Shown here in pieces: positions 16,073 to 62,777 of a stretch of 64,000 bases of DNA. How positions within the stretch are numbered: position 1 is the stretch's first letter; each line of letters opens with the position of its first letter. Source of the DNA: Mytilus trossulus (Eukaryota); assembly GCF_036588685.1 (NCBI RefSeq), contig NC_086386.1, forward strand, positions 18,042,001-18,106,000. The letters are read 5' to 3'. The notes below the pieces were generated by a model, which saw nothing but the letters and a program-made list of their open reading frames with translations, had not been told where the DNA came from and did no database searches. Both the position numbers and the translations under genes were made by a program.

Positions 16073-19000
16073 ATGGACAGACAGAAGGTATGTAAAAACA
16101 TTTTGTAATATTATTATTGACAATAACTATGAATAACAATAATAAATGTAAGCATTACCAGCTTCATCAATTTACACGATTTGATTTGATTTGACTAGTT
16201 ATGGGATGAATATACTAATCAATTGAAGAATAATGATATGAATTTTAAAAAATAAAACTCGAATCATAAAAGATATCACTTAAAAAATTAGGTCACTTCA
16301 TAAAGCAAAACCTTCAGTTTACCGTCAATAACATGGGTTATTAAAAATTTATGTTTCATTGTTTCATTTAATTGTTGATAATGAATCTCTAGGGTTTTCT
16401 ACATGTCATTTTGTTCTTGTTGATAATTTTCATGTAAGCTTTGTCTTTCTGATAACCCTTTTGGTGATTATAAATTTCTAGACGGTTGAAACACATGTGA
16501 AACCATTTATCAATTGTAGTCTTGGATTTAAACATTCCTTCTACTTTTAAAAACATGGGAAATAAGAATGTTTCACTTAATGATTATAATGTGGCATCAA
16601 ACAAATTAGGCCTCTAATGCAGACATGTTCGGTGATTGTGTCCTTTAAGACATTACTCAGCAGCTTGTACTGTCTGGTGTAGTGGACACAAATTTATAGT
16701 CTTGCATATATTTTGTATGAATTTTATACTAAATCAGAGATGAGTAGGTTTGATCAAATTTTTACGACTTAATTACAATTTTCAGATAAATCTAGCTTTT
16801 ATTCGGTTAGAACATTTCTTAGAACAATGTGCGAAACTGAAGAGACCAAATCCGCCAAGTTTGCCAACACCAGAAATGGCGAAAAATATTCGGGACGAAC
16901 TTGTATTTCTTTTAGACAATGTCCAGGAAATTACTTGTGACGATGTAAGTATCGAACAATAAATGATACTAATACGTGTACACAATAAAAACGGTAATAG
17001 AACTACATACTGCACATTTAAAAAATACCGTTACACAAAACCGAGGTTGGTTTTCATCGACCTAATAACAGTTGTTTTATTGACTTCATGGATACAAATG
17101 TTTGATGAAATATCGAAACGACAAACAACTTATGTATAACAGAGTATTATGGCAGATGTGGAAAAATTACTATACAACACGTACCAATAGTTTAAAGTTG
17201 TAGGGAAGTACTTCAATAGACAAACATCATGTAGCATGTCCATTTACCATGATTTTAAATTGGTTTAAAATGTGAAAATGATGAAAATCTACTAAACACA
17301 ACAAAATTTGACATTGTGTAGCATTTTGTAAAAAAAACAAAATACAATAAAATAGATATCAGCCACTGTTGTAGTTAACCATATTTTTGTACTCATATTA
17401 TTTATGTTTCTTCTTTGAATTGTTTCATATCTAATTTACTTTGAAATACTCATTTCAGTTGCCATCTGTACTTGAAGTTGTTACAAACGCCAGAAAGAAC
17501 GATATTCCCGGTATTCATAGATACAGTGATAAGGCACTAGAAGAATTCTTGATAGCAAGAAGTAACTTTATTAGACGGGTATTAATTATCTCTATATTAA
17601 TTAAACACATAGGAAAGGGGGGATATCACTATTTTAAAGTATAAAAAGAATTTCAATATATCAGAATTCTAGCGACGTAGGAGAATGGATTCCAATGTCA
17701 AGTAAGGAATCTGGCATGCTTGCCAATGAGTTTATTTCAAATGACGTGGATGCAATCATATATAATGTGTTTCTCTTGGTTTTAGTTTGTAACCCATAAT
17801 TGTTTTAGTTTGGTGTCGATTTATGAGTTTTGAACACCGGTAATATACTGTTGCCATTATCTATAGGTCACCTGGCATAACTTTTTATATAAAATTGAGA
17901 ATGGAAATGGGGAATGTGTCAAAGAGACAAGAACCCGACCGTAGAAAAAAAACAACAGAAGGTCACAAGAAGGTCTTCAATGTAACGAGAAATTGTCGCA
18001 CCCGGAGGCGTCCTTCAGCTGGCCCCTAAACAAATATATACTAGTTCAGTGATAATGAACGCCATACTAATTTTCAAACTACATCTACAAAATGTTATCG
18101 CAAAAATGAGTTAAATCAAGCTGAATTCAAATTGTTCATATTGTGATGGGTTTTTATTTTTATTTCTTACGCCAAATGAGTAACAGTTATTTCATGTTAA
18201 TTTCAGGCAGATGTAAATACTTTTAACGGATTTGAATTTCCGCCTACTGTGAAACCAACATTCATTAAACCCAAAGAAACTAGTAAAGTAACCGAATGGC
18301 GTCAACAGGGTGAAAGGGAGAGGTATGATTATAAATTTGCATACATTTGTATCATCTGTTTTAATAATATCGATAACAAAATCAATAAATACATATCTTA
18401 TTGCATGTTCCTGAACAAGTTAATTTAGGATATTCCCAAATGGTTGCCTTTTGTCCTCTATTGCATTTGGTATTGTTTGCATATCCATGATGGTAATGTA
18501 AAATTTATTCGTTTTTAGATAACGCTTATCTTTTATTGAAAACGTTCTGTGAATCTTAAGATGTATTTGTGTCGTTAGGTTGAAAGTCATTTCGTACCAT
18601 AAACATTTCGTATCTCTGCCATTTCGTGCCCAACATACCCATTTCATTTCCAACTTTACCGTTCCGTCCCCATGATAAAAAGCATTACCTTCACATGTCA
18701 TTATTTCCTGTCGCATAACTTGCTTGACTGTGTTTCCCGTGTTTGTTTTTACTATATGTCCTTTTATTTAGGTTTTGTTATTCTACTGGTTTAGATTAAA
18801 AAGAGAAGAGTTGAAATCTTTAAAAAGATAACAAGTTGACCAAAGTCTAGTGATTTCATATTTTCATGTGCCTGTCTCAAGTCGAAAATCTCGTCGGAAG
18901 TTATCCGATATCACGTTTTTATTTTTTTCGTTCATTAGAGAATTCAATCTTTAATAATGGCATATATCAATCTTTTCTGTTTAAGTTATTACCCAAACTT

Positions 19001-38379: not shown

Positions 38380-41030
38380 AGGTTGCTTATCTTATAATTA
38401 TCTGGCAGTAATTTATACAACAACCCGTAAAAGGGAGAATTCACCAACACAGCTGGCTTTTTGCCTCCGCATTTCAAAAGTTCCTGAAACGAGGATGCAA
38501 CGGCAGTCAAAGAATTCTATTTCGGTTTCCAACTGTCATTCATTCTTTTTTCCCACGACCGACAATTCGACAAAGTGTCTTATCCACTGAATGCATGGAC
38601 GAAAAAAGAGCAGCTACACAAGGACCAAACGCATTTGATATGTCACGTACAGGAAGCCTTCAAAAGTCTTGATTTTATTCCATAACCTATCCACAATGTG
38701 TTCTACCTAGTTTTGCGATTGAAGCAATTCTTGATACTAGTACATCTGTGATAGTACTAGCTAAAATTACATTTTACAACACTTCGCATCATCATGCCGA
38801 ACATGGACAAACATTCGTGTGTCTGCTTCTTCATGTTAACAAGGGGTAGATAGGAAGTATCCTTATTGAAATCGCAAAGAATATTTTCACCATGATTACA
38901 TGCACATTTTTATAAGTCTCTTTAGAGGCAAATTTTTCAGCAAGAAACTTGAACAATTTCGTTTCGTAGTCATTTTCACAGAGAAAACTACTTGGTATTC
39001 TTTTTCCAAAACCAACACCTTTCATCTGGCACAAAAACCTTGCCTTTGTCTTGTCACAGCCTTGAAATTATTCATTTAGTGAACATCAAATACAATGTCT
39101 ACTCTTGAATACTTATCGATGCAAGATTATATGTAAGGCAGTATGACATTATTTGCATAATCATCAAATAGTTTTGCCCAACTTTGTGACCTGGAATTAA
39201 TTATTGGTGCCCCACCAACGATTAATGCGTCCGAATTTGGATCAGCAAATAGCAGAATGTTTCAAGTAAACCCATTTGCAGCGATTTAATACCACTTTTT
39301 CAAGAAAAATCATGAGATAAAGACGGAGGAGCAGTTTGGTTTTTATGCATAAAGAAATATTCCAAGTAAAACTCTCTATTATTACAAGGAATCTAAGAAA
39401 CTTCCCAATCACTATTGAGGTTCTTTAGCTTTGTTTTTGACAAAGATGTTTCCAGTTTAACTTTGCGTTCAAAATAGGAAGTTTATTTTGTATTTGGTAA
39501 TAAAAAGCAGGTTCTCCTTCGTTTTGCATTTGCTTCAAAAGATCTTCGTATTGTTTGGACCAATATCTTGGAGTTTATTTACATATTTACCTGTTCAACA
39601 ATTTCCTAAATAGAGTATCTTGTTTTTACAAATCTGACGACTCTTCTAGAAATAAATTTCTAAACTCGTTCATCACTTTACAAGCCTTTAAAGCTGTTTA
39701 AAAACATTTTTTTTTGAGTTTTCGTAGAGTCTTCATTAGGCTTCATCTATTACAGGAAGACCCAACCACAAGATCTTTCAAATTCATCTTCTAGTATACT
39801 GACTCCTGGTCCAGTTTCCATTTGTCTAAATAGGATCTTTGGTTAATCCTAAAGGACCGACATCTCCCTTCACAATTGCATTATTCTGTTTTTTGTGTCT
39901 CATCAATTGTGTTATAAGAAAGAAATTTGCTTGTCTTACGTACAGTAAAATTATCATTTTCAAATTCCATTGCCACCTGTGGGTGATGCTCAGGAAGCAA
40001 AGTCATATCATGGAGATGGGTCAGTAACGATCGAGCATAATTTACACGATCAAGACCTAAAACAATACGCTATCGTGCTTTATATGAACTGTTTGTAAAG
40101 TACGAAATCTCACTCATAAAATGAACATAATATCAAAATTAGAAGAAGTTCTTATTTTATAATTGAACGCTAGGAATGAAACTGTGATCGATATGACTCT
40201 ATTTCTTTACACCAGTCTTTTAAATTAATGAACGTCACAAAGTCATGACATAATTATATATTTCGAAATTAAAAGTTTAAGCCAAATACATGAAGTTGTC
40301 TGATGCGCCTGTCAAGTCCTGGGTACATTTGCACATACATAAAAATAATCTGCTGTTCTTGGTGTTGCAATATTGGCTTCAGTAAAACAACACGTGCATC
40401 CCCTATCACGCAATATATTCTCCAGAGTTTTATAACAAGCCATTTCAATGTGCAATCCACCAAACATGACGATAAACCTATCTTCTCTGTACAAGTCAGG
40501 CCATTCCCGGTGAATTTGCTTAGGAATTTCCAATGGTGGCTGATCTGCAGTTACACTTGATGTTTCTCCGGGATTCACCACATTTTCGCCTTATCCATCG
40601 AATACCTGAGAATTGCCTGGTAGTGCATACAAATCGCTCTTGGTGTCTATGAATAGTTTGCACATGAGCAAAAGTGTTAAACACATGTGTGTCATAACCT
40701 TGAAAAATGTTATTAAACCAATTCATAATAAAATTATCATTAGAAATCCAAAAACACTTAATATATAGTTAATAGTTCAAATGTTTTTGAAAGAATTGTG
40801 TAACATTTTCGCGCATGCACAAATACTGGATATGTCAAATATTAATTTTTAATAAATGTGTGATGTAAGGAAGGTATCCGCCAAACCTAATATTTGTTTT
40901 TTACTAAAAGAAGTTCAAAGAAAAGTTTTCCAGAAAAATCAATATTTTCAAACTGAAGAAAACAGCCATTTTAGAAAATGGCCGAGGCCGTCTTGATTTT
41001 TTTTTTTAATGGCCAGCAGTTATTTCTTAA
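38380..41030 (-). mobile_element. Decayed Academ-type (XPG/FEN1-domain) DNA transposon; boundaries approximate
   Basis: Collinear minus-strand fragments: NPGETSSVTADQP..IPKQI..WPD.Y.EDRFIVMFGGLHIEMA (40581-40312), HEEADTRMFVHV (~38835-38800), TDVLV (~38749) and HAFSG*DT...GRGKK (~38560-38505), broken by stops and frameshifts. The superfamily call rests on recalled motifs. Confidence 0.7.
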
Positions 41031-43670: not shown

Positions 43671-46600
43671 TTAGTAAGGTCTTGCGCAGCCCCGTTTTAA
43701 CATTAAACCGGCGTCATGTAAATATAAAGCTGGCCATACAGCATGTTTGACAACAGTTCCTTTTTTCTTGTAGTATTTAAAAATTGTTGGATCCATAGCA
43801 TCGTCAGGATCTGGCCACCTTAAAATCATCGATGGATCTTGTACACACATGTACCATATGAGTTCTACACATTTGTCTATATAGGAATTCATAGAAACCA
43901 ATGTTTTATAGTTCAGTTCTAATCTCGAAGCTGTAGATTCCTTGAAATACTGAAAATAAAACAAAATATTGTATTTGAAATAATGAATAGTTTGATCTTG
44001 AAGTTGTGATATATATTTGAAATCTGAAGTAGTTAAATCAAATCCTTGATTTGTATACAAAACAATCTATATAAATAATTTGTTTAAACATATATATTTA
44101 CAGTAGATTGGGAAACAAATTATGACAACTTATATTAATCCCTTTACATTTTTCGGGTGCGAGTGTTGACTTGTAGCGGCATTGGCCTGCTCTTTTTCGA
44201 AATCTTCAAGGATGCAAGAAATATTGCTCTCTCTCAACACGGGCCAGTCACTTATCGTCACCTTCTGACGGATAAGCATCGTTTCCTCAAGACCATACTC
44301 TCAAATGGTGTTGAGGGAGTGCTGAAAATCCAGTTCCTGACATTTTCTCCCCGGAACAGGAACCCTTTCAGGAACCTTTGTGTTTGTAGTCCAATGCGTT
44401 AACCACTACACCACGGCACTCCTAAAACTCGTTGGATGTAGTGTAATAAAATGGTTAGCGCAATATGTGCATTGACAATTTTATAATAAAAAAGGGTTTA
44501 ATCTGATGGGTGAATACTCAATACATCATAGTTACAAAAGACAATTATAGATTGCTAAGCACATATTCCTTTTTTCCATCGAAACTAGAATCTTTACACT
44601 TTTTCTTTGCAATATAATGGATCTCGATTTGCTTTAAATTTTCAGGCGAATTGTCAATAATGTGTTTGTTGTTAACTTGCAACATATAACAAATGATTAT
44701 TACCACAAGTTTTTAATATGAAAATATGAGCTATTTTGCAGTTTTGAATAATGTTAAACCAATACCTGTATAACACTAGGAACAGACAATGTAGAACTTG
44801 CTCGCCTGTATTCCTTGGCTAACCGAGTAGCAACTCCTGATGGTAATTGTAGTGGAGACTTATATCCGTGTATCAATGATCCCTGCAACAAAAACAATTA
44901 TTAAACGATTGTCATATATACGAAGACGGGTCTCTTGTGTGATGCGTTTGTTCAACAACACAAAGATTAACAAAATCATTTTTTTTCCCTCAAAATTTCA
45001 AAAAAAGCTTTTCGATGGATCTTGAAATAACGCAAAATGTAACCAAGATTTTCATGGTAGCAATAACAAATAAATAAACATTAGTGAATTTGTTAATAAC
45101 AATATATACAGTTTTTAATATTTACCTTGTCTAAAGAGTAAATATTCTTTTGTCGGACGTTTGGGTGTTCCATTGTATGAATGAGTTCTATTATTTGGTC
45201 CTCAGCTATTTGTTGGCAGAATGGATATGCATACTAAAATGAAAAAAAAAATGAGATGAACTGTAAATGATACCTGTCTCATTGGGGCTACTTACTTTTG
45301 TAATATTAATATGAATGTTGTGGGGGTATAATTACGATGATGTAAAAAGATCTTCCAATGGAAAAGCTGAAATTTTTGCCTTAATGCCACTTTATGCCTG
45401 GCGTGCAAAATAAATCATGATAAAAAAGAATATTCTAACATAATATAGCATTTTTATGGTTCATGTGACACGAGTTCTATCATCAATAAGTTAAACGAGA
45501 GAAAGATAAATATACTAAAACATACTCTTATAACTCTCATCAACTTATATACAATTTCTTCATCGTGGTAGCCTCTGTCTGCCAAATCCTCGTATGCTGC
45601 CTTCCATTCGTTTTCAAACACAAGAGCAAATTTTTCAGCAATGTTGGTAGAATTGACTGTTTCATTGGCGTACTTGAATGTAGGGAACCCGTCATAGATA
45701 TGCTGATTGGCTAAGGCGCTGACCCTGTAATGTATAAGGCGGAGGTACCAATGAAATACTATTGAACTATTGTCTCAAGCTACGTCTCAAATTATAGATG
45801 CGTCAACTTGAAAGATAGGTGTCTCAAAGGTGTAGATGTGTACTTTTGCATTGGTTTCAGAAATTTAACATGCTTTTTATTTATCACTACTGCGTTAATA
45901 CTGTATATGCATATTTTGATGAATATAAATTGTAAAAGAAAAAGGCAGAATAAAGCCTCCTGACTCAAAGTTTTTCGAAATAACAAATAAACTGTACCTG
46001 CTTGTTAACTCTTGAATTGCATTGTCCCGCTTTGTTAGTTCCAGCCTCATTTCATCATATTCATCCGCAGAAACAAATCCATCCTTTCTTATGTATAATG
46101 GAGATTTCTGAGATCTTGCAGTGACTATCATATTTGGAGACTTTGGTGGTGTTGTTGGAGTTAATCTTCCTATTAGACCTATTTTCACTCTTTCTGGATT
46201 TTGACGGTTTTTCTTTAAATGTTTCTAAAAAAGCAGCAATATTGCAGAATGTTGTCAGTGCGAAACCCTTAACATATATTTTTTTTATTGATTTCTCAAA
46301 TCTACAAGACTAAATCATAATATGGCAAGACTGAATCATGATATTGCAATGTATGTTAAAGTTTGCTTGCAAAACGTTTTAGAAAGAAAAGTAATTATCT
46401 AGCCGCATACATAATTATCATGCAGAACTGTGATCAATAACTGAACTGAGTTGTAAGTGTGCAGTCATTGCACACATTACTAGGGATATATATAAGTATT
46501 GCATATTCATATGGTTGAAAAATAAAGTAAATGTGAAAACAACTGCTGGCGTAGATAAATCGGCTGTGGACTGTGTATTGGCAGGACATTTTTCTTATCA

Positions 46601-47367
46601 CGGAATACTAGTTTTAACTTTTGTGTAGACATTTTGCATTTTGTTCGATTTTGCAATCCATATTCTGTGGATATTTATCATTTTGTTTCAATAAACTTAT
46701 TAACGAAATTATTCGTTTCCTATTTTTTAACACTTACATTGTCCCCCTCAAGTTGAACATACAGTTTTTGTATACGTTGCAGTGATATAAATTCAAGCAT
46801 TGCGTTTCTCCATGCTGATCTTCGGTGTCTCTCGGCTGTTTTCAAAACTTGATACAGTTTGCTGACAGACAGAGTTGGGAACTGCGCTTCGCTGACATAA
46901 ACTTTATCATCATTCTTAACCAGGCTTCGAAACTGCATGAAATAGATGAAAAATAAATAGTTCAAGATGATGTCTGACAATAATAAAAAAAATAACTACA
47001 AAGTTCGTTAAAGTCAAATTCTTCAAGAGATTAGGAAATTCATTGGTATTATCACTTTAATTATTCATGATAGATAGTCAAATATTGTGTTCATGTATAT
47101 CAATGACTAGAAGATTTCTGAAAGCATGGTCATATTTCAATTAATCTATTAAAATTCAATTCAACTAACCTGTTCCGGGTACTTTGTATGGAGGAGGTTC
47201 TCCGTCTTTAGGAGGTCAATGTACTCGTATTTAGCAGCATCTAATACATGTTTAGGATAAAACACTTGCATATCCTGTACAACAGTTTCTATATTCAGTC
47301 TCGGTGAATAGTCGGATGACAAGTTGATATACTTGGCCCTCACCGGTACCAACGCCATTGAATACAT
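43671..47367 (-). CDS. G6: MIEAP-like domain protein, N-terminal class B, ~440 aa, 7 coding exons
   Basis: Exons 47367-47170, 46932-46738, 46224-45998, 45724-45526, 45233-45126, 44882-44766, 43949-43671. All GT-AG, open frame of 1323 nt. Motifs IAEKFALVFENEWKAAY, CVELIWYMCVQDPSMILRW, VWPALYLHDAGLMLKRG. Confidence 0.87.
44080..44422 (-). mobile_element. tRNA-headed SINE (central Deu/Nin-like domain, tentative)
   Basis: The minus strand starts GGAGTGCCGTGGTGTAGTGGTTAACGCATTGGACT (A-box, tRNA-like). The body is shared with copies at 6910-7202, 48340-48410 and 61530-61622. Confidence 0.65.
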
Positions 47368-50197
47368 TTATTGACAGCACACTTTGTGAAGCAATCTCTT
47401 TATAATATACATGCATCAGACACACACTGTAGAATAGTCATTGCTTCATTCGTTGCTGCATTATCCGTTTAAATGAAATTTTGTATTTCTGTTGAATATA
47501 TGTAAATACAAGATATATATATAGATTCAAAGAAAAATGAACTATTAGGCAATCAAATTTGGAAGTTCATTTTAGTAAAACATTTTGAATTGAAAGATTT
47601 AATCGTTTGAGCTTTCGCTACCATTACTTCAGTTGTTTATTTTGATGTTTTCTTTAATGTTTTTAAATTTTTATAGCAAACATATTAAATATAAACTCGT
47701 CGAAATTGGCTTTGCATTTACGATGGTCTAATGCCAGACATTATATTTTTAACGCCATTGTTTGTTTTATTTTGTATTAGTTATTATCCCTTTAAATGCA
47801 GTTTCTGCCTTTTTTTGTTGTTGTAATTTTGCCATGGCGTTGTCAGATTATTTTCACAACGATTTATGAGTTTGAATGTATTTTTGTATTCTTAAGCCTC
47901 TCTTCTAAACATAGATTTCGGAGATGTAAGGGTAAAATGTGTTGCTTACCTTTTATTAATATCTTTAAAATTCAATCAGTCGTAATTCAATCTCCAAAAT
48001 CTAAAATATTTGACTTAAATTAAAATGTCCCATTTATTAGTCATTTAGAAACTACTCAACGATACCAATTTCAAACTGCTATTGACTTTCTTTGTTTGAT
48101 ATAAATACTTTTCAGTCTTCCGTATCATTAAACTAAACATTTTAAATGTGTATAAATAATGAATATAACGAAAGGAAATGTCTCTAAAACAAAGAGACAA
48201 TTATATTAAATGCCCAAAAGAAAGAACATTATATCACAATGACTTTTTTCTTTACACTACATATCTTGCCACTTAATATATATAACTGACCTAGTTATAT
48301 TCTCATATTTTAGTGATATTAAAAAAAAAACAATTATTATTAGTTTAAACATATTTATTTATAGTGGATTGGGAAACAAGTTTTGCAACTTATATCAATC
48401 CCTTTCCACATTATTATTAGACTAAAGTAATTGATATTCCAATATTTGCATCCGTGAATAGTAGTTATTTTTTATCACATATGCAGCTATATACTAAAAT
48501 CAGCTTTCCGATGAACTTTCCATCGATCCCTAGTTGGAACGCTTTTTATATGCTAACGAGATTTGTTTTTCTGTAACAGCCCAGATTTATTTTAATAGTA
48601 AGACCCACATCGAACTAATGTTAATGGAACGTTAATCTACTTTGTTTTATCTACCGTATTACTTGTGGACTGATGAGTTAAGCGGATACATGTAAAAGCC
48701 AGGAACCTGATGTTCAGAGGTTGTCGTTTGATTATGTGGTTCATACGTGTTTCTAATTTCTCGTTTTTTATATAGATTAGACAGTTGGTTTTCCTGTTTG
48801 AATGGTTTACTCTAGTCATTTTGGGGGCCTTTATAAGTTCGGTGTTAGCCACTGCTCCTTGTTGAAGGCTGTACTTTGACTTATGATGGTTTATTGGTTT
48901 GATGGTAATTGTGACTTTGATGGATAGTTGTCTCATGGCATTCATAACACATCTTCTTATAACTTAATAGGATAGATATTGGGTTCAAAGTATATGGTCC
49001 GGACCATTCGTTGTACATGTTTATCTACTATCCGAATTTCATTAATGCTGTTGGCCAGATGTGTTGTTGTAACATGGCATATAAGCATGACAGATAACCA
49101 CTGATATGTTACACACGAAGGGTCCCATCAGTGGATCAGGAACTGCTTATTATTTTGGGAACAGTTGGGTTTTTTTTTAAAAGCTTTTTGTTTGGTCTTA
49201 ACTTTTCTGTATGTTGACTTTTTGACAGTTGCTTGGTAGTTTGCCTTTCCGTCTCTTTCTTTTGGAAATTGTGTTGAGATAAAGCCTTGCTTTTTTTTCG
49301 AAATCTTTTTATTTTGTGACAATGTGAGTATTCAGAGTGCAATCGTATTACTCAATTTTTGAAGAAAAGATATAAAGGAACTAATCTAAAGATTACCGAC
49401 TTTCCTAACTTAGCATAATTATAAACATAATTTGATCTATTGTGCATTTAAAATTTCAATTTTTTTTTTGAAGTATTTGTCATTTTCATTAATGAAAATT
49501 CCAAACTAGCAAACCACTGCTCAACTAAAGACATTCATACAGACGATAACATGCCTATTCCACCAATTAACACAGCCAATTAGTTAAGCTTTAGACTAGA
49601 AATGTAGACTCAATCCCAAAGAAATAGAAAATATAGAGAAAAAAAACCACCAATACAAGTAAAGTAACTCGCTTGGAAAAACATCAATCGCTGTTTTTGC
49701 TAATAATATGAATAAATTGCAATAATTCGGAGTTTAGTATGACGTCCATTATCACCGTACTAGTATACATATTTTTCAAGGGGCCAGCTGAAGGACGCCT
49801 ATGGGTGCGGAAGTTTCTCGCTACATTGAAGACCAACTGGTGGCATTCGGTTGTTGTCTTCTCTATGGCCGGGTTGTTGTCGCTTTGAAACATTACCCAT
49901 TTCCTTTCTCGAATTTAATGTCTTTTAAAAAGGTATTACAGTTTGAACGGGAACAATATAAATTGTTTATGGATAAGTCTAAACTTTCTTTAAGATTATT
50001 TGTATACGATATACGAGAAGGTCTCATTATCAAGATAAAATTGCGGCAATTGGTAAAGGAATAGTGACATCTTAAAAATCAAATTTTACATTAAACTTGT
50101 AGTTATAAAGAAATACATTTATAATGAGTTTTTTTCTTGGATGTACGAGGCAAAAATACAATTGTCAAAGTGAGTTAAAAATGTTTTATTGAAGATG

Positions 50198-53100
50198 TTA
50201 CATGGGAACAGCAAATCCTTTACACAGTACTGGTCCTTTGATATGCATTAACACTGCTGGCCATACAGGAAAGTTCACATTGAATCCCTTTCTGTTGTAG
50301 TATTTATACAATGTGGTATCAAATGTTTCTCCTTGCTGAGGCCATTCTAACGACATAGGTGGTTCTTGGTTTAACATTAACCATATGGTTTCTAGACATC
50401 TCTCAGTAAACGTTGATACTTCTGGTGTTTTCAGATGTACTTTATAGTCAGGCAAACTTTCCAATAGTTCATTGAATTTCTGAAAGAGAAATTATAACGT
50501 AAACGAAATATCAGATTCAAACAGGAGCCAAAAAAAAGGGCTGTCTTACTTATTGCCCTCAAAAAGGTTAATAGAGTAAACCTTATACGGAGACTGGTGG
50601 TGTAAAAACTTACTAGTGTTGGACTAAAGCCTTGCATAATACACTAGCTCCTCTATTGTTTTACTGTAGTTTTATTTCAAGACATATTTGATTTGTATGT
50701 GTGTCGATATTTCTTAAATATATACAATTCGTATGTAAACGTGTGTGAACGTAGAAAATGTGTTTCTTCAGTTCTGATTCCTTTTACAAATAATATATAC
50801 CGAAAACCAGTCCATTAAACAATATACACGGTAGATGTATGGTTCCTTCTAACGACATCTCATACTCCAGTAGTTCATTTATGATTGTACAATTTTACTC
50901 GAAAAAAGATATAACTAAAACCTTAAAAATCATTTTGCAAAATTATGTAAATGTATTTTTATGCAATCTTGATCTAGAAAATAATATATATTTGAATTTA
51001 CTAACATCCAATAGATTAGTAATGGTGACTGTACAATGCCGTTTACGGAATAATCTTGCCAGTCGTTCTGCATCAGTATGAAGGATTTTAATGTCGTTTG
51101 CTGACACCTTTCGTTGTACCTAAAATAATACAATAAAACACAAAACTAAATATCAAATTAACCGAATCTAATACGATTTGTCTTTTTTATGTAGTGTTAA
51201 AAAATAACAATAAAGGGAGCCTATAACACTGTGCGGGACAAATTTGCCATTCCGGTATCGGCAAATCTGACTTTGTCGGTTTACAAGATATCAACATCAA
51301 AAATTTGCCCAGTGATAGATTATTGAAAAATTAAAAACATGCCATATGTCCCAACTTGTCACTCTTGTCACTGCAGCTGATTAAAAGTACATTTCCCATG
51401 GGAAATTTGATAATTCCCATGGGAATATTAGAATTTCCCATGGGAACATTGGAAGTTCCCGTGGGAAAAATTACTTTTCCCATGGGAAGTTTAGAGTTCC
51501 CATAGGAACTTTAAAGTTCCCATGGGAACATAAGTAAATTGTTTGTTCTCATGGGAAGTTCTAAATTTCCCAAGGGAATTTTTCTTCCCAGTCTATTCTA
51601 CCCCTTCTCCCAGTCCGAAGTGAACGTGCACCAGTAGGTCCATATTAGTGATTGCCTTAAGTCAGATCCGAACGAGTTTTATCTTTTTCGGAATTTAATG
51701 CTTATTGAAGATCTCATGCTATTAAATACCGTATGTATACATGTTCATTTTTTTACATAAATAAGGTCGTTAGTTTTTCTCGTTTGAATTGTTTTATATT
51801 GTCTTATCGGGGCCTTCTATAGCGGACTATGCGGTATGGGCTTTGCTCATTGTTGAAAGCCGTACGGTGACCTATTGTTGTTAATGTCTGTGTCATTTTA
51901 GTCTTTTGTGGATAGTTGTCTCATTGGCAATCATACCACATCATCTTTTTTATATGTTGACCAATATCGTTTGAGTCCTTGGATGTAACACCTTATTGGT
52001 ATACATCTAATGTATTGTAATGCTTTTGAAGCAACACTTAACTCATTAAATAAAAGCTTACAAAAGAGGTAAACGCTATAATTATGGAATTGAGCATTCC
52101 AAGTATCCATGCAAATGATCCTGGTTGACATATGATTTGTTTTTACATATATATGTAAAGTAGGATCTGCTTAACCTCTTGGAATAACTGCGATCACCCC
52201 GAAGTTTTGGTGGTGTTCATGTTTCTCAGTTTTTAGATTCCTATGTTGTGTTTTGTGAACTATCAATTGTCTTTTTTGTCGTTTTTTTCTTCTTTTTTAG
52301 CCATGCTGTTGTCAGTTTAGTTAATTTTTTACTTATGAGTTTGAACATCACTTTGCTATCTTTCGTCTCTCTTGTAAAGTGTGCCTCCGTCAGTGATATT
52401 TTAATGTATTTAAAAATCTGACATAAGGATGAATAACATTAAAACTCGAACTTACGTTAGAATGTTGAGTTACACAAGGTTGTATAACCTGATCTGTCAT
52501 CAAGCTGGTAATGTTTTCTACTTGTTCAGCAGCTACGGAATTCACCAATTTATAGCATTTCTGTAAATGGAAAAGACAAATAGTTCCTGTATTACTATGG
52601 TATGATGGAATATTCCTTTATTTGTTACGTTAACTATTCAGGAAAATATGAGTATGATTGATTAGTGTTGCAGAATGTTTTAGTAATTTTTTGGGGTTTC
52701 AGTTTGTAAAGCATTGTCAATTGTATTGATTTATCTTGCATTGAACGGTATAGTAGCTTTTGCTATATCCACACATATTTGCTTCACAACAATTTACATT
52801 CAGGCATATTGCAACGAAGCACACAAACCAAAAACCAAAACACACAAAAAAATGTTGACGTCATAAAATAAAATATCTGACGCCACAATGGAAAAGTGAT
52901 TGTTGTATGCGTCAAAAGTTCAAGCGGCCGGGTAAGCCGTGATCAGCGATAAGGTGTATACTAATAATTGAATTGTAGTATAGGAAATCTTTCTGAACAA
53001 ATACTTGAAATGCTACGTCTATACTAATATACTAATATTCATGTTAATGTTTGTGTCATTTTGGTCTTTTGTGGATAGTTGTCTCATTAGCAATCATACC

Positions 53101-55690
53101 ACATCTTCTGTTTTACATGTACCTTTATTATTTGCATAAGACTGTACAAAGCTACATCTTCTGTAAGTCTATCTTGATGTCTACTTATCAATGTTTCGAC
53201 AGCTAGTTTATATTCATTGTCATATACATTGATGAATCTTTGAGCAATTCATTGTATAGTCTACAGATCCTGGATTATCATCACAAGTACAACTGCTTAG
53301 TCTGTAAAAATATATAAAACAGGTTACAAATACAGTTTTCCGTATAAAAGATTATGAAATATAAATTGTTTAGGCAACTCCTCGAACAGTATAAATTTAT
53401 GCATGAGCAATAATTTAACAAACAACACCAAATCATGAAATAATAATTATGAAATATTCAGATAGTATAATAGGTTACTGGTGTAACAATTTTGGAAAGA
53501 AAATGAAAAAAAAAAATCCATTCTCAATTTTAAATTATAGGTATGAACTTGTAATAACTCGGAAGTCTCTTATATAAAGTTGATCGTGAACGGTTTTATT
53601 GTTTGTGTTTTTACTAGTGTCTATGTATTTTTCTTATTTTGTGTTATACCATTGTCAGATTCAGACTTGTATGTATATATATTCATGTATAATAATGTTT
53701 TTAACAATTATTTTTTTTCAGAAAATATAAAGTTTGAAACATAAAAAAAAATGTTTTTGGCGCTTAAATTTAACTCGACAGATCGATTGGGTTTCCTTCC
53801 TTCCTATCTTATATGTTTAGTAAATTTAAAATACAAATAAAGAGCTTCTCTCACCTAGCCTTTAAATTTTGAAGAATATCTTGGTTTTCTCTATCAAGGT
53901 TTCTTAAGGACATTATTTCGTCTGTCTGAGTCTGTAAGAGATCTCTAAGGTGTTTATTTTGAGCTGTTAACGATTTCTGGTCTTGTGAGTTATAAACTGG
54001 AGCAACTTTCATCACTGGTTTACTTTTGAAGATTCGAGATTCAAATATATCCGGGGCCGGTCGAAGTTTAATTTCTGATTGACTACTTCGATTTGATATT
54101 GATGGTGATGTGGTTGAATCAATTATATTGAATATTGGTTTCTCAGTTGCGACAAAATCCCGTGGTGATTTTCTTGATTTGATATTTGGTTCAGAAAGAA
54201 TACGTCTTGGTGTGCTTGCGGACTCATTCTGTCTTCTGTTGTCTGGCTCCGGTGACTTTGGTACATGAACAGTGTGTGGCGCTCCAAACAAAGGGGGATC
54301 TGCTTCCGGTTTATCTGTTAAAGATGTACTATATGGTGGTTTACTTATTAATGTTAATGAGGATGAAGAACTGTCTGCAGGAGCTGTCTCTGCTCTTGAT
54401 ATTGGAGGTAAAATTCGTGGACTTTCGTAAAACTGAAAGACAATTTTTTCTTAAAATTCATTTGATTTTGATAGTGATGATATAAAGGGTTTATATTCAG
54501 GGATTTATTTTGGTAAGTTTAGATTTTTGCTCATATCTATATATTTAATTCTAATAATCGAAGGCAGAGTAAATGATATCTTTATTTTTATCGACATTTC
54601 ATATGTATTATCTCCTTCGATTTTATTAAAATATATTAATTCGTGATAAATCTTCAGGTGAGGAATTTAAAAATCGCAAAATGTGCATTACTCATTCCAA
54701 TTCAGTAAAAAATGTTGAAGCTGGTACTTACACCTTTAAATTTTTCTAAATCATAATAGTCTTCTTTTAATTTACATAACAACCAATATTCTTTCATAGC
54801 TTCTTCATAACTAGAAGAACTCTTTCTGTCACATATGGCCCGATACAGAGGAGTTGACAATGCCCAGTCTTTGTCTGTTGGTTCTTCTCCTCTATATTTC
54901 TCTGTAATTTCTGTATACTGCAATTGAAAACAAAATTAATGGAAATGTAGTAAAAAAAACTCATCAAAGATACAAGGCTATCAACATTGTACGTCAATCG
55001 TCCGTTTCATCTTTAAAAGAACCTAATGATCAAGTATTGTACAAATTGAAAAAATATTGTGAACCAAACATTCCGAAAAATTGTATTTTAACAAATTAGG
55101 CATATCAAGATGTTCGCTTTCAGTAGAACATAGATTTCTGGGAAAAATAAACTAGCTGTATATATTTTTAATTGTTTTTATTATTATACAGCGAAGAAAA
55201 GTGCACATATTACAAGTTTTACTTCCAATGATTGAAGATACCACAATCCTCTTCTCCAATCTACATTTTTTACAATTTCAATAGATATCACAAAGAGTGG
55301 AAACAATGTATTTTTGTAATACCATTGTGTTAAAGTTGTTGTGCTACGAGTAACATTTTTTTTTTGCAGAAAGATGCAATATTAACTCGTGTATTCATTT
55401 CTGTAAATACCTTACAGGTTAGTTGTAAATAACAGGAACATATTTTGCAAGTTGTATCATAGAACTAATGTTAAACTTTTAGAACTAATTAGAAATACAC
55501 ATCTATAGTTTACGTTACTAATTATAGATACCCTGTTTCTGTATTTTACTTCAAATTCTCGTTCAGTCTGTAGAAAGCTGATGTAATCTCGCTGAACTCT
55601 CGGATCGAAGTTATAGTAAAATAATATTCTGTCAATATTTTGTCTTCTTTTATATCCTGATGGTATTTGATATTTCCCAAGTTGTTCCAT
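50198..55690 (-). pseudogene. G7: MIEAP-like domain gene, class B, frameshifted in exon 4 (pseudogene, null allele or assembly error)
   Basis: Exons 55690-55532, 54917-54732, 54432-53855, 53301-53123, 52560-52456, 51119-51006, 50479-50198 total 1603 nt, which is not a multiple of 3. Exon 4 begins RLSSCTCDDNPG in one frame and continues IAQRFINVYDNEYKLA in another. Read-through hits TGA at 53222-53220. The other exons are open, including CLETIWLMLNQEPPMSLEW and VWPAVLMHIKGPVLCKG. Confidence 0.78.
51393..51578. repeat. Array of nine 12-bp palindromic TTCCCATGGGAA-type units at ~21-bp period
   Basis: Units start at 51393, 51414, 51435, 51456, 51477, 51497, 51517, 51546 and 51567, with non-identical 8-9 bp spacers (one of 17 bp). 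Four units carry a single substitution. Confidence 0.9.
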
Positions 55691-57486
55691 GTTACCACTA
55701 CAAAGGAGAGTAATGTGTCGAATGCTTCCATGCAACTTTCATTCGTACACATATGTGATTCATAATAAAATGAAAACTAGAGATATTAGATGAATACAAA
55801 TTGAAAAGTATGTATTCCTGCATACGGTTGATTCCTATATTTTGCATTGCACAAAGGTTTTGTTTTTGCATTATTTACAAACATACTATTACATATTGTT
55901 TCAAAACTATTGTTATATTACACTACTATTCCAGATAAGAAAGGGAAAGGGATTGGGCGCAATTAGAACAACTGACATCTTTTACATTCTTTATGGTATT
56001 GTCCAAAACTGCACCTGCAATACAGTTGCTGTTTTTGTGTGTTGTCTGTCCTATTTGTTTTTCGTCGTCGCATAAACCAGACCGTTGCTGTTTTCTCTCT
56101 CAAGTTATTAGGGACAAGTAATGGTACTTATCTAACAAAACATAATAAAACCGCCGCATTTTTTGCGCTCTTCTCAAATCAGGAGCCTCTGGCCTTTCTT
56201 CGACTTGTATGGTTCATTTATATGTTTCGGAGTTTAGTGTGACGTCCAATTTTACTGAAATAGTACACACTTTGTTTAAGGGCCAACTGAAGCCGGCCTT
56301 CGGGTGCAGGATTTTCTCGTTGTGTTGAAGACCCATTGATTGCATTATCCTGTTATTTCTCCGTAAGTTGATTTTGACATATTCCACGTCTCCTTTCGTG
56401 ATTTTTAATACAAATTATGAAAATTTCAGATAATTTTATGTGATATGACATCATATAATAGATTTAGTGTTAAGAACGTATCAATATTAAAGTAACTTAC
56501 CTTCAGTTTTCATTTAAAAAAACGAGACCTATTTAAATAACTAGTGTTATATGAAATTGGTCACACGTATAACGTTGATAAAGTGAAACACTTTAACAGT
56601 GAAACTTTATACACTATCATTCACAATAATAACTGTCCAAGCTTAAATCTATTGTCTTATGAAGAATTTGTATAATACAATTTAATTACAAACGAGATTT
56701 AAAATAAGTTTGAAAAGTGTATACCATTTTTCTTATATATGCATTTCACTTTGCATTTCATTTTATATATACTAAGCATTATTTGAATATCTCCATCCGG
56801 TTTAAATAAGACCGTAGCAGTTGTAAAGCATTATTTTTGGTTTAAAAACATTGGGTTATAAATTTACAAACATACATCCTTTTTTGTCCAACGCACAAAC
56901 TAATTTCTTCTTTTTAAGGAGGATCTTAATTTATATCTATTATGATTATCTTTGGTATATAACTGATTACTACTATGAAACTAGTCAAGTTAAAGTTAAA
57001 GTCCACCATTTGAAAGAAGAATAAAGTTTTATGGACGCTATCATTTGATTTGGTAGACAATGGAATTTATGTATCACAGATGATACTGTATAAAGTTGTA
57101 GTCACAATCATGTTTTTTGCGTTGACTGTGACGTATCACCCATTTTTTTAAAAATAAGAACGACAGACAGACAGGTGCCACTAGTAAATTAAGAACTGCT
57201 TAACAGCTTTAGTACATCCCATTTATTTTTAGGTTCATGTTGGTCAGGTTTTAGATTTGTTTTTGTTGCAGGTTGTTAATGCTTTTTGATTGAGCACTTC
57301 AGATAATCCTCAGTTTTCGGTTGGGTTTGCCCCTTTAGTTTTCTATGTTGTGTTAAATGTACTATTGTTTTGTGTTTTTCACCATCGCCTTTGTTAGTTT
57401 ATTTTCAACTTTTGAGTTAGAACGTCCCTTTGATATCTTTCGCCTCTTTTTTACCAGCCAATGTATTTGGACTTGCAATAAACATA

Positions 57487-57914
57487 CACAACTACTTTTG
57501 CATAGGTACTATTTCTGTACTAAAAATCTGTAGCACTGGAAATTTACTTTTAAAATTCAGTACTATTTTGTTACTGTTAAAATTATTGTAAATACTAATA
57601 TTTAGGTACCTGTATTTTACAGTACTTGATTTGTACTGGAAATTTAGGTACTACAGATTTTTGGTTACTACCGTTACATTTTCAGCATTTTGAAAGTTTT
57701 TCTATTTCAAATCTCTTAAAATTATGATTTTTAAACATGGAATATTGTATTATTTCTGTACCAAAATATTTAGTACAAATTAAGTACTGTAAAATACAAA
57801 TACCTAAATATTACAATAATTTCAAAGTAAAGAAATAGTACTAAATATTAAAAGTAAATTTCCAGTACTACATATTTTTAGTAAAGAAATAGTACATATT
57901 CAAAAGTAGCTGTG
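57487..57914. mobile_element. Foldback/MITE-like element, 428 bp, ~160-bp imperfect inverted arms, TA-flanked
   Basis: Left end CACAACTACTTTTG (57487) and right end CAAAAGTAGCTGTG (57914). Arms ~57487-57651 and ~57758-57914 are reverse complements rich in GTAC. TA is present on both sides. A related relic CACAGCTACTTTTG lies at ~62563. Confidence 0.8.
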
Positions 57915-58062
57915 TAACACGATTACAACGAAAGACTATAGTAATTAGAATGGAAACACCAAAGGAAAATAAAATACACTGATAAAGGAAAAACAATAGC
58001 TAATACTAAATTCTGACTTAGATTGAAAGAATGATAACAAAAGGTTTTGTCAAAAATAAAGT

Positions 58063-61000
58063 TTAAACTGGTTGAACGTATCCTTTTTTGATTAACGGTC
58101 CTTTCTCATGAAGGTAAACTGCAGGCCACACTGCATGCTTAACTATTGAACCTTGTTTCTTATAAGGCATATATATTGCCTCATTAAATACGTCATTAGG
58201 TTGAGGCCATCCTAGTGTCATTGGCGGATCCTGTATTGCCAGTAACCATAATACTTCAACTATTGAATTCACAAAAGCTTCTATTTCTGGGGAATGTCGA
58301 TAGTTGTATTTTGGATTACGCAATAAGTCTCCGTCTTTGAATTTCTGCTAGAGAAAATATATGTAAAAATAGTTAATATTTTTTTATTTCATAGCAAACA
58401 AATAAATAAGAAGGTAAATATCATTTCAACAAATTCTCAAATTTAGGACTAAGGCATAAATGTACATGTTACCACTGAATTCAACATAGAGGTATTGAGG
58501 CAAATTATTGTTAGATAGTCATATTACTGCCAAGAGTATGTCTCATACACCACCCATTAACTTTAGTAGTGCTGTTTTATTTGATATTTTGAATTATCAT
58601 GGTATGAAGTACTGGCAGTCGTAGAAAACCTCAGAAAGACTATATATGACTACTAATAGTCATCTGGAAGTGACATTTATGTACATAGGGGAAACATCAA
58701 ACAGACTGCAAAATCTATACGGTAAATTCTTTAAATGAATAGCTCATTTTGCAATAATCAGAACTAATTTATTGATTAATAGTTTGTCGTCATGTTTAAC
58801 AATAAGCAGTATTACATTAAAATTTTCTTTAATGTAAAGAAAGACAAAGACCATTTAAACAAACAAACCAACATTGCTTTGTGTATAATTTTAAAATGTT
58901 TATCTTGATTGTAACAGTTTTACCTGTGTGGCTTGTACAATTGTTTGTGCATGTTCTGCTTTTCTCATTCGCTTCAGCTCTCTCATCAATGAGTCCGGTA
59001 TTCTCTTTCGCTGGTCATACTTAACACTTCGTAAATCTAGGATCTGTAAAATTGAAGCGCAACATTTAAAATTACCTCATATCGTTGTATACTTCGGATT
59101 TCTCATATATGTTCGAACAATGGATCTGGTCATGTGTTGTTGTTTGTCTCTGTTTACTGTTTTTTTTTTTCCCAGAGAACTCAGTTATGTTTTGTTGGTG
59201 TTGTCTGTTGGTCCATAAAGTGTATTTGGCGATTCTAGTTAAAAGTGTTTGTATAACATATATACACAAACATACAAACCGCGAGAAATGGGTCTTCTAA
59301 ACCTTTTTCTATACTAAAAGACAATTTCTGGAGTTGGTCAGTGGCAAATTGACGACAAAATTCATAGCCATTCTGAAACATAGAAACGGGCAATATGATT
59401 AGAATGTGAACCTTATTAACAAATACCAAAATTTATATGTTTCCCTTATAAACCTAAAAGGACGTTTAATTTGATACCAACATGTTTGAAAGGGTTTTTT
59501 TTCTCAAGAAATCCATTCACATTTGCAAGGACTTTAACTTATCAAATGATTTACTTTGTGAATACTGTTCGTGGTAAATAATATCAAATTTGTTCTTTTT
59601 TCATAAAGTATATGACCCGAGGACATAAAATATTAGTAAAACAACTTATATCTTTACCTGTACAATGTTCATAAGTAGTGAGATACCCTCTTCCTCATTA
59701 GATTCCACTTTGTTAGCAGTAAGTGATTTTAGGGCCTTGGACCATTCTACGATGAATATAGAGTTGAATTCTTCAGATATCCGGGTTGGGGTATAGTTAT
59801 CTGTATACAATACACTGGGTCCACCATCTAATTCTCGACTAGCAGTTTTACTCAGCCTACATGAAATATGACAAAATATCATCAATAAATTGTTGATGAT
59901 TACTTGGAAAAATAAATACATGTGTAAATCACAACTAGTATACCACGACCAACACAAGGCCGTACGGTGACCTATAATTGTTAATGTTTGTGTAATTTTG
60001 GTCTTTTATAGATAGTTGTCTCATTGGCAATCATACCACATCTTCTTTTTTATACAATCAATCTTATAATAAGGAATATGCTTATAAGTTCCATACCAAC
60101 AGTGTACCATTCGTGAGTGAAATTGAGAAAAACAAATCCGAAGAAAACTAAAAGTTTCTGAAATAGTAAGATTTTGTCTAATGCTTAGTTTGTTTCTGTG
60201 TGTGTGTTACATTTTAATAGTGTGTCGTCATTCTCCTTTAATATTTAATGCGTTTCCCTCGGTTTTGGTTTGTGACCCGGATTTGTTTTTTCTATCGACT
60301 TATGAGTTTTGAACATCGGTATACTACTGTTGCCTTTATTAGGGCATTTATAAAAAATATATAGTGTGATAATAACAAACCTGTTTCTTAAGTCATCTAT
60401 AACTTTGTTACATTCGTTCACTTCTGTCTGTAGTTTACTAACAATATCATTCTGTAACGATATTCTACTGTTGGATTCCTGGTACATTGGCTGAGGGTAG
60501 TATATTACACCGTTGATTCTTATTGGAGTGTTTGGCACCTCTCTGGTCGATGGTGTTCGTTCTAGGTCTTTACTTCTTGGACTAAAATATTCCGGTCTAG
60601 ATCGAGGGCTTAAAGAATCGGAAACGTCTTGATATGTTTTTTGCTGCGGTCCTTTCTACAGAAAAGAGTGTACGGATTAGCCTCCTTATGCAAATGCATA
60701 ACATGTCTTTCCGTTAATATTGAAATGCTTTTTAAAACATAGAATAGTTGATTTTTTTAACATTGCCATACTAGCGGGAGGTTTGGCTAGCCATATAAAC
60801 CGACCGATTTTTCATTAAAATCTGCTGTACCAAGTTACAAATGGGCAATTTGTTTTAAATAGTTCGTTTTTATATATGTTGGCGATTGTCTTTGTAGCAG
60901 TTTAGTTTTTTTGCTGTTTCGTTGTTTTTTCCTCGCGATCGTGTTTTGTTTGTGACCTGTTTTTTTCTCTCTTAAAGTTAAATCGATGTATCACTTTTGA

Positions 61001-62777
61001 ACAATGTTATACTACTGTTGTGCATATGTTTTTTTCCTTAAAGTTTATGTTTTTCCCTTGCGATCATGTTTTGTTGGTGACCCTTTTTTTTCTCTTAAAA
61101 TTAAATCGATGTATGACTATTGAACAGTATTATACTACTGTTGCGTATATGTACCGTCAATTTTATGTAATGGTCCTTCACATCGTGTAAAAATCTACAC
61201 TCTTCAATAGCTGTGTGTTGTATCTGCATTCTGTACTTAATGTACGATTCATTCAAAAGCCTGTACAATATACTGTCAGGGTAACCAGTGGAGTATTCTG
61301 TAAGATCATTATCTTTACGGAGTCTCCGTCTGTCCACCAGATACTTATACTATAATGCGATAAATAACAAAATTGTATGTCAGCTCAGAACTTCAAAGCA
61401 CATGTTTAAATGTTGGAAATGAGGTTATTTTCATTAACTTTTTAAATCAACTGATAACAGCTTAACTCTTGCATGTTATTTTTTAAAAACTTTGATGATA
61501 CAATAATTACAAAATATCTCTTCAACATTAGGCAGCACTCGCACCTGCAAAGTGGAAAGGGGTTGATATAAGTTGCAATAAATTGTTTCCCAATCCACTA
61601 AAAGTTAATATGTTTAAACTAACAACAAGTGTGTCAATGTAATGTGGTTGCTGAAATGATTACTTGTTAGACATATTTAAGAGGAATAAACATAGTTTTA
61701 TATGACACAAAAGCATTATAACAGGCGAATACAGGTTGGATCATTGTTGTTTTGCCTGATCTGTTTCATCGGTTTTAATAACGTTTTTTCAATACTTAAA
61801 GATTCCGATTGCAATGCATTTTTGCGTATCTATCTGTTTGCATCAATGTGACAAGCGTACATGTTAACCTTAATCGTATAAACTACTCTGTTTAGACTCT
61901 GTATTTTTTTATGCCTTAACAAGAACCTTAAACGTGTTTATTTTGACCTTTTCAACTTTTTACGTTGACTACAACATGTATATTAAGTTATTGCAGAATC
62001 TCATGTCAAGCTTATAAAGTAAATTGACTTAGGAGTAGATAATGTCACAGAATTTCAATCCCAACATGAGTTCCTGCGTATTAGTATAATTAATCACGGA
62101 CAACGAATCCTTGGCAAAATATAATGCCTGGGCAAATTTTATGGATATGTGTCAAAATGTTCATCAGTACAATTTTGAATATTTATTGAATCATAGAAAA
62201 ATAGGGTTGAACAGGGTTTGCACCTAATGGTATGCTAAAAATTAACAATCCATATAAAATCGAATGACTAATGTTTTGTTTTATTTCTTCAAACCTTGAG
62301 AACAACTTTTAAACAATTATAGTCCATATGCTTACAATTCATGTGTCAACAAATAGATGCATGTAACATATTGTAATTGCTCATTTTCATAAGTTTTCAG
62401 AAGATTTTCATCTATTGATATATATATATATATATATATTGTAAAGTTTTATGAATATTCTAAATTAATTAGCATATGTTAAAATACTAAAATAGTACAT
62501 GCAAAATATCAAATCATAAAAATACAAATTGTTCAGTGTCTGAGAAAACTTGTAAGATTTCCACAGCTACTTTTGCTCAAAGGGTGCAATTTGGGTACTG
62601 TTACATTAATCATAATACCATTGTTGGATCTCTAACAGATAGTTCTTGGTCCATCCTCAGAAGATCGTAATACTCTTTAACAGCATTTTCGAACATCCTG
62701 GTATCAACTGGGTAACGTAAAACTTGTTCTATACCTGGTTGAGATCTACAACCATGCGGTATCCGAATTGACGCCAT
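58063..62777 (-). CDS. G8: MIEAP-like domain protein, class B, ~440 aa, 7 coding exons
   Basis: Exons 62777-62619 (MASIRIPHGCRSQPGIEQVLRY..., absent from the ORF track), 61349-61155, 60655-60381, 59856-59658, 59372-59280, 59043-58924, 58344-58063. All GT-AG, open frame of 1323 nt. Motifs ISEEFNSIFIVEWSKAL, VLWLLAIQDPPMTLGW, VWPAVYLHEKGPLIKKGYV. Confidence 0.87.

Follow-up and report, generated by a model that had tools for sequence, protein, structure and literature searches.

A bivalve-wide, predicted helical domain, probably a doubled exon, at the N-termini of three MIEAP-domain genes of Mytilus trossulus

The DNA analysed here (the window) is a stretch of 64,000 nucleotides from Mytilus trossulus (RefSeq assembly GCF_036588685.1, contig NC_086386.1, positions 18,042,001 to 18,106,000) with a G+C content of about 31%. 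It carries a tandem cluster of eight genes, G1-G8, that encode the MIEAP domain (PF16026) and have seven to eight exons each. Annotated orthologues exist in Mytilus species for all eight genes, and the full-length orthologues of every one of them score above the PF16026 cut-off. An initial annotation, made from the sequence letters alone, had divided the N-termini of these genes into two classes lying in contiguous blocks, and this arrangement is what we find: class A (G1-G5, of which G3 alone is on the plus strand) occupies positions 174-36031, and class B (G6-G8, all on the minus strand) positions 43674-62777. The same annotation had read the class B N-terminus as an internal duplication of two exons. 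Here we describe this region, the B domain, its distribution among bivalves and its probable origin.

The six peptides quoted for the class B exons are all present on the minus strand where the initial annotation had placed them, each pair in two phase-0 exons with AG/GT ends, and this two-exon N-terminus is found in 3/3 class B genes. Its size, anticipated as about 115-130 residues, is 115-131: 128 residues in G6 (131 from an upstream Met), 115 in G7 and 118 in G8, divided between the first exon (B1) and the second (B2) as 63(66)+65, 53+62 and 53+65, respectively. The same B1 and B2 exons are joined in annotated Mytilus proteins. In G6 the splice from B1 to B2 (47170 to 46932) is present in contigs from 4/4 public runs, presumed to be RNA, and the introns of this gene appear as CT..AC joints in contigs of 3-4 of these runs. 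The corresponding splice in G7 was seen in 1/4 runs (run X4), where one contig of 1,677 nucleotides abuts exons of the gene, and the G8 join comes from annotated orthologues only. Behind the B domain lies a low-complexity linker exon (76, 193 and 92 residues in G6, G7 and G8), which in G7 is the long third exon and is identical to M. trossulus protein P0004. The last exons of G6-G8, the ones scanned against Pfam, match PF16026 with the scores listed in Table 1, against a gathering score of 27 bits. G6-G8 are spliced, expressed MIEAP-domain genes.

An AlphaFold2 model of the B domain (predicted local distance difference test, pLDDT, 91; predicted template modelling score, pTM, 0.82) is all-helical. 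Each exon contributes one short and one long helix (residues 17-25 and 30-49 for B1, 76-83 and 90-117 for B2), with a linker helix between them. In a structure search over 48,161 chains the best match to this model was the four-helix bundle of Zuotin (6cgh; Z 5.0, root mean square deviation (rmsd) 2.9 over 72 residues), and Foldseek at E 0.001 gave no match for B in PDB or BFVD and none for class A in PDB. Chains of the tetratricopeptide repeat (TPR) solenoid, MLKL-type and death-fold kinds were not prominent in the top 50 rows of the structure search, which does not amount to their exclusion. A complex prediction with two copies of the B domain scored 0.00, in a calculation where the alignment was unused and the fold uncertain. 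Conservation falls mainly on hydrophobic core residues and on one Glu in each unit, and a catalytic pattern is not evident among them.

The distribution of the B domain was followed with a profile of eight Mytilus-group N-termini, which was searched against 1.84 billion representative proteins at E 0.001. This search gave 14 matches, namely 12 B-domain proteins or fragments and two bacterial TPR proteins, and a full-length profile gave 46 MIEAP proteins. Iterated over 80 fetched eukaryotic proteins, the B profile converged on 45 segments; the E-values of the iteration refer to this small, core-selected set, from which class A proteins and proteins shorter than 200 residues were barred from inclusion. 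Among named records, the segments belong to Mytilus, Saccostrea, Pinctada (where just the first half is present), Pecten, Mizuhopecten, Ylistrum and Argopecten. Profiles of the mussel-group and of the other bivalve sequences, compared by hhalign and thus scored free of iteration bias, match each other with probabilities of 95% (B1) and 91% (B2). Judged by sequence, the B domain is a bivalve-wide, old N-terminal domain, and its spread over mussels, oysters and scallops makes it older than the split between these groups. The whole domain occurs twice in eight of the fetched proteins (P0057-P0059, P0062-P0065 and P0078), two of them from Saccostrea, and a third unit suspected by eye in P0078 and P0080 was not found by hidden Markov models (HMMs) of the halves. 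Putative single units also occur among gene models: P0067 has a B1 that ends at the homologous boundary, P0073 is without the second block, and P0087 has one weak B1-like unit. In Pfam none of the B or A exons reached a cut-off (a match to zf-CCCH_DUS3L, at 16.4 bits against the 30 required, was rejected), the PDB searched by sequence gave 0 matches for B at E 1 and none convincing for A or for the full-length profile, and the ESM Atlas gave no usable match to the two B regions searched. The B domain is undescribed in the domain libraries searched.

That the two exons are copies of one another is suggested by comparison of their profiles. Thin profiles of three sequences each gave B1 against B2 an hhalign probability of 1.6%. 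Deep profiles of 26 and 27 non-redundant sequences (P0067, with B1 only, and the partial P0088 were excluded) align in the register predicted by the initial annotation with 16.0 bits, P 0.002 and a probability of 13-16%, and an independent alignment gave 16.3 bits. Without the 11 and 10 mussel-group rows, the remaining 15 and 17 sequences, all new to that annotation, gave 17.3 bits, and the crossed sets (mussel-group against others) gave 14.0 and 14.9 bits. The B1/B2 score was reached by 0/150 column shuffles, by 0/150 shuffles that keep the hydrophobic pattern (maximum 12.9) and by 0/84 overlapping windows of the MIEAP core (maximum 11.2); reversed halves scored 5.9-6.8. Each unit is encoded by one symmetrical phase-0 exon in 3/3 genes. 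The halves share the columns A at -3 (20/26 B1 and 20/27 B2 sequences), E at 0 (23/26 and 20/27), Y/F at +1 (25/26 and 21/27) and L at +4 (19/26 and 22/27), and in both a short I/L..hL helix lies upstream and position +11 is hydrophobic. The strict motif A-x2-E-[YF]-x2-L, which had been ascribed to both exons, holds in 4/6 class B exons of the window and fails in G7 B1, which reads V-Q-R-D-Y-I-S-F, and in G8 B2, which has C at the Y/F position. It has 0 matches in 9,450 residues of MIEAP core.

Several results, however, weigh against a doubling. The hhalign probability of B1/B2 is low (11-16%), self-alignment of the whole B domain gives P 0.02, and the half-HMMs match the opposite half at less than 4 bits in single sequences. 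Likeness between the B1 and B2 exons is absent at the level of DNA, with local scores of 18, 22 and 16 versus 18, 19 and 17 for reversed sequence. A control comparison, of the first class A exon (A1) with the core helix before QDPP, reached 17.8-18.2 bits and P 0.002 in three overlapping windows of 28, and a profile of the bacterial TPR proteins (P0040-P0047, which served as a control and were not counted in the B family) scored 23.6 with B1 and 15.4 with the second class A exon (A2), though this set had been pre-selected by the B search. These controls indicate that amphipathic helices can reach the level of the B1/B2 score. Since B1/B2 beats all shuffles but an unrelated-looking control scores 18, duplication is likely yet short of proof, and we think that the B domain probably originated when a single phase-0 exon was doubled in tandem long ago. 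The duplication proposed in the initial annotation is supported in its register and P value, but borderline overall, given its low probability and a control pair that equals its score.

The B domain might instead be real and old without being a repeat, two long helices having converged on A-x3-aromatic-x2-L and the intervening intron being coincidental. We regard such convergence as rather unlikely: control pairs score equal or higher (A1/core 18.2, B1/TPR 23.6), the B1/B2 probability is only 13% and cross-matches of the half-HMMs are weak, but shuffles keeping the hydrophobic pattern never exceed 12.9, both halves have a conserved Glu before the aromatic residue, sequences from outside the mussels show the match again, the unit coincides with the exon, and the TPR control had been picked from the 1.84 billion proteins by the B profile itself.

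The relation of class B to class A is a separate question. The initial annotation had seen the same motif at the end of class A and had suggested that both classes may descend from one phase-0 exon unit. The strict motif is present in 0/10 class A exons; A2 has an invariant Ala in 5/5 genes and, as read from the sequence, A-x2-[EDQ]-[FY] in 4/5. Thin profiles of the window exons gave hhalign probabilities of 0.2% for B/A, 0.35% for B2/A2, 0.06% for B1/A1 and 0.35% for B1/A2. With deep profiles the whole domains aligned with a probability of 0.4% and P 0.16 and B1/A1 with P 0.38, and B2/A2 gave 12.0 bits and P 0.018, a score reached by 1/150 shuffles and 0/28 core windows. A common unit, if there was one, would mainly concern the second exons. 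The class A model (pLDDT 87) matches up-down four-helix bundles such as CheA HPt (1tqg), cytochrome b562, talin and FAT rods, with Z up to 8.9 (rmsd 2.8, 87 residues), a level that the search tool calls common for helical bundles. The class B model has no match above Z 5.0 (6cgh), and the designed bundle 6egc gives Z 6.7 with the A model and 2.6 with the B model.

Class A and class B may alternatively be one family, descended from the same two-exon or single doubled-exon N-terminus; in one MIEAP lineage this would have become shorter and diverged in place to give A. Both stand at the same position in the gene with two phase-0 exons each, B2 and A2 align in the register of the motif, MAFFT puts the Leu and Ala of the two in the same columns, and some short N-termini of oysters have weak scores with either class (for P0061, P 0.006 with B and P 0.03 with A1). 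We nevertheless find a single family rather unlikely, as neither the whole domains nor the first exons align convincingly, no class A N-terminus was collected in five iterations with the B profile (class A being barred from inclusion), the two models differ in their bundle matches (an indirect argument), and the A module is mobile, which makes replacement plausible. We prefer to regard class A as a four-helix module of the same gene position, either separate from B or very diverged; A2 alone may share ancestry with B2.

Trees were built on the C-terminal regions of orthologues, none of them vertebrate, rather than on the window's own sequences: a quick tree of 49 rows, and a careful one (LG+G4) of a 27-row subset from which near-duplicates and several long branches had been removed. 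The separation of G1-G5 from G6-G8 that the initial annotation had raised is recovered, with class A on one side of a branch at 99 in the quick tree and 100/100 in the careful one. In the latter the B-bearing genes, including those of oysters and scallops, group at 91/91 and G7 and G8 at 99/99; the placement of G6 is not settled, and the approximately unbiased test does not reject a clade of the mussel B genes (p-AU 0.36). Because the root is uncertain, A may have replaced B or the two may be sisters. The opposite direction, in which G6-G8 had replaced class A, is not supported by the distribution: B is the domain shared by mussels with oysters and scallops, and among named records class A was found only in Mytilus, in a word-based search with five exons that is weak evidence of restriction. 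Six oyster-group MIEAP proteins (P0061, P0068, P0069, P0070, P0073 and P0079) lie in the B clade; their N-termini are short and diverged, have only weak scores with B and with A, and are possible intermediates.

A TPR origin, in which B1 (and A2) would be degenerate hairpins of TPR type and the whole domain what remains of a TPR solenoid, is very unlikely: the B profile retrieved bacterial TPR proteins with E 2.5e-7, B1/TPR has an hhalign probability of 73% and A2/TPR P 0.005, and the long helix of B1 has the same spacing of A, E, aromatic, L, L and closing P as the bacterial 45-residue TPR (P0040/P0041), but that E-value is summed over 7 stretches which singly give only about 7-14 bits, B2 is without a match (P 0.11), and the TPR set compared was selected by that same B search.

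The overall picture that we slightly favour is that the first two exons of G6-G8 encode a bivalve-wide domain, predicted to be all-helical, likely doubled and likely partner-binding. The doubling of one phase-0 exon would predate the mussel-oyster-scallop split, and the two units would pack on each other. The domain would have no catalytic role and, standing ahead of the low-complexity linker and the conserved core, would set the partners of each paralogue, by analogy with the role proposed for the N-terminal half of human Mieap (PMC10845071). Partner binding taken by itself we put forward tentatively. Portability of N-terminal modules is indicated for class A by its occurrence in front of another protein: a close copy of the G5 A1 and A2 exons heads HSPA12A-like proteins that RefSeq models for M. 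edulis and M. trossulus (P0026, P0028 and P0048). In these N-termini 75/92 and 69/92 residues are identical to the G5 exon pair, and the likeness ends at the A2 exon boundary; no HSP70 part was found in the window. The class A module thus appears, from such sequence comparison, to have moved by exon shuffling between two bivalve expansions. A far bolder view, which we consider doubtful, is that B is a new pseudo-two-fold fold from one doubled phase-0 exon, the same exon founding the second half of class A, and that the modules act as interchangeable address tags, which pair each of about 50 bivalve Mieap-like paralogues with its own partner and which underwent a further doubling in oysters and a transfer to HSPA12A-like chaperones in mussels.

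The Mieap-like family (orthogroup OG24) is expanded in bivalves, with 807 genes, or 53.1 per bivalve versus 0.6 in other species, according to the accessible part of PMC8382680. G6-G8 resemble this family in a C-terminal PF16026 above cut-off; that part of the paper describes no N-terminal domains, and B and A are without a Pfam match above cut-off. Human Mieap (SPATA18) has a similar layout, with a hydrophilic N-terminal half, a disordered and coiled-coil middle and a structured C-terminal half, and its authors propose, in the portion of PMC10845071 available, that the C-terminal half binds lipid and the N-terminal half client enzymes. The likeness to G6-G8 is one of layout. In another mussel, the gill-biased genes are enriched in members of the MIEAP Pfam family (PMC5549309), and the accessible part of PMC8195603 does not mention Mieap. 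No paper dealing with the MIEAP domain (PF16026) by name or with tandem Mieap genes in Mytilus was found in the literature searched, although subscription journals and supplements may contain an account of the N-terminal domains. A suspected likeness between the MIEAP core and GrpE found no support, as no GrpE row appeared in the Pfam or PDB searches. Mieap-like genes are among the largest bivalve expansions (PMC8382680), yet are annotated by their C-terminal domain only; what is new here is one conserved N-terminal domain, spread over three bivalve orders, that is modelled with confidence and for which the structure search gave no look-alike. The domain provides a means of classifying the family and a starting point for questions on the roles of its paralogues. 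If the halves superpose, it would be a clear example of how doubling a single exon can give rise to a fold, and the class A graft on HSPA12A would link two stress-related bivalve expansions via exon shuffling. We infer the function of B, and would rate the importance of the domain as moderate.

Table 1. Exons of the class B genes, with the class A exons used for comparison (window coordinates)
Feature	Positions	Strand	Basis
G6 exon B1 (with the start codon; ends in phase 0; putative first hairpin unit)	47358(47367)-47170	-	100% to P0001 1-66; splice contigs 4/4 runs
G6 exon B2 (linker helix and putative second hairpin unit; phase 0-0)	46932-46738	-	annotated orthologue, splice contigs
Rest of G6	46224-43671	-	PF16026 40.7 bits, orthologues, contigs
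G6 linker exon	46224-45998	-	
G6 MIEAP core exons	about 45724-45526, 45233-45126, 44881-44766, 43949-43671	-	
G7 exon B1	55690-55532	-	orthologue; run X4 contig
G7 exon B2	54917-54732	-	orthologue; contig
Rest of G7	54432-50198	-	PF16026 55.4 bits, orthologues, contigs
G7 linker exon, long, Ser/Pro-rich	54432-53855	-	
G7 core exons	53301-53123 (frameshifted), 52560-52456, about 51119-50976, 50479-50198	-	
G8 exon B1	62777-62619	-	98% to P0002 1-53
G8 exon B2	61349-61155	-	annotated orthologue
Rest of G8	60655-58063	-	PF16026 41.7 bits, orthologues
G8 linker exon	60655-60381	-	
G8 core exons	about 59856-59658, about 59399-59290, 59043-58924, 58344-58063	-	
G5 class A exons (comparison set)	A1 36031-35876, A2 35531-35412	-	close copy at head of HSPA12A-like proteins
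G4 class A exons	A1 27795-27634, A2 27143-27018	-	orthologue comparison
G3 class A exons	A1 16786-16944, A2 17459-17578	+	orthologue comparison
G2 class A exons	A1 14606-14445, A2 14106-13990	-	orthologue comparison
G1 class A exons	A1 5168-5025, A2 4208-4089	-	orthologue comparison

Further observations concern the cluster itself. The fourth exon of G7 (53123-53301) has 179 nucleotides, 17 fewer than in the run X4 contig and than would be expected from the orthologue P0006; the shortening leads to a frameshift and an early stop, and the M. trossulus model P0004 skips round the exon. This may reflect a null allele or an assembly error. Exon A1 (F..LE.FL.KC..L....P; for example in G3) resembles the start of the last exon (for example 58344-58240; hhalign P 0.002), which may be chance, or A1 may come from a partial copy of the last exon. 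Other Mytilus assemblies have B paralogues that are absent from the window, namely a sister gene of G7 and extra copies of G8 (P0035, P0049, P0007-P0010, P0038, P0060 and P0085). The B block may continue beyond the window.

An open reading frame (ORF) for a Myb/SANT-like protein (10367-10804, plus strand; PF13873, 69 bits) runs antisense to G2 within one of its introns, and is likely a Harbinger-type transposon gene. Two ORF fragments with no Pfam match, at 14767-15006 (plus strand) and 40315-40590 (minus strand), look like remnants of mobile elements, and a palindromic, repeat-like stretch noted by eye lies between G7 and G8, at 57500-57900.

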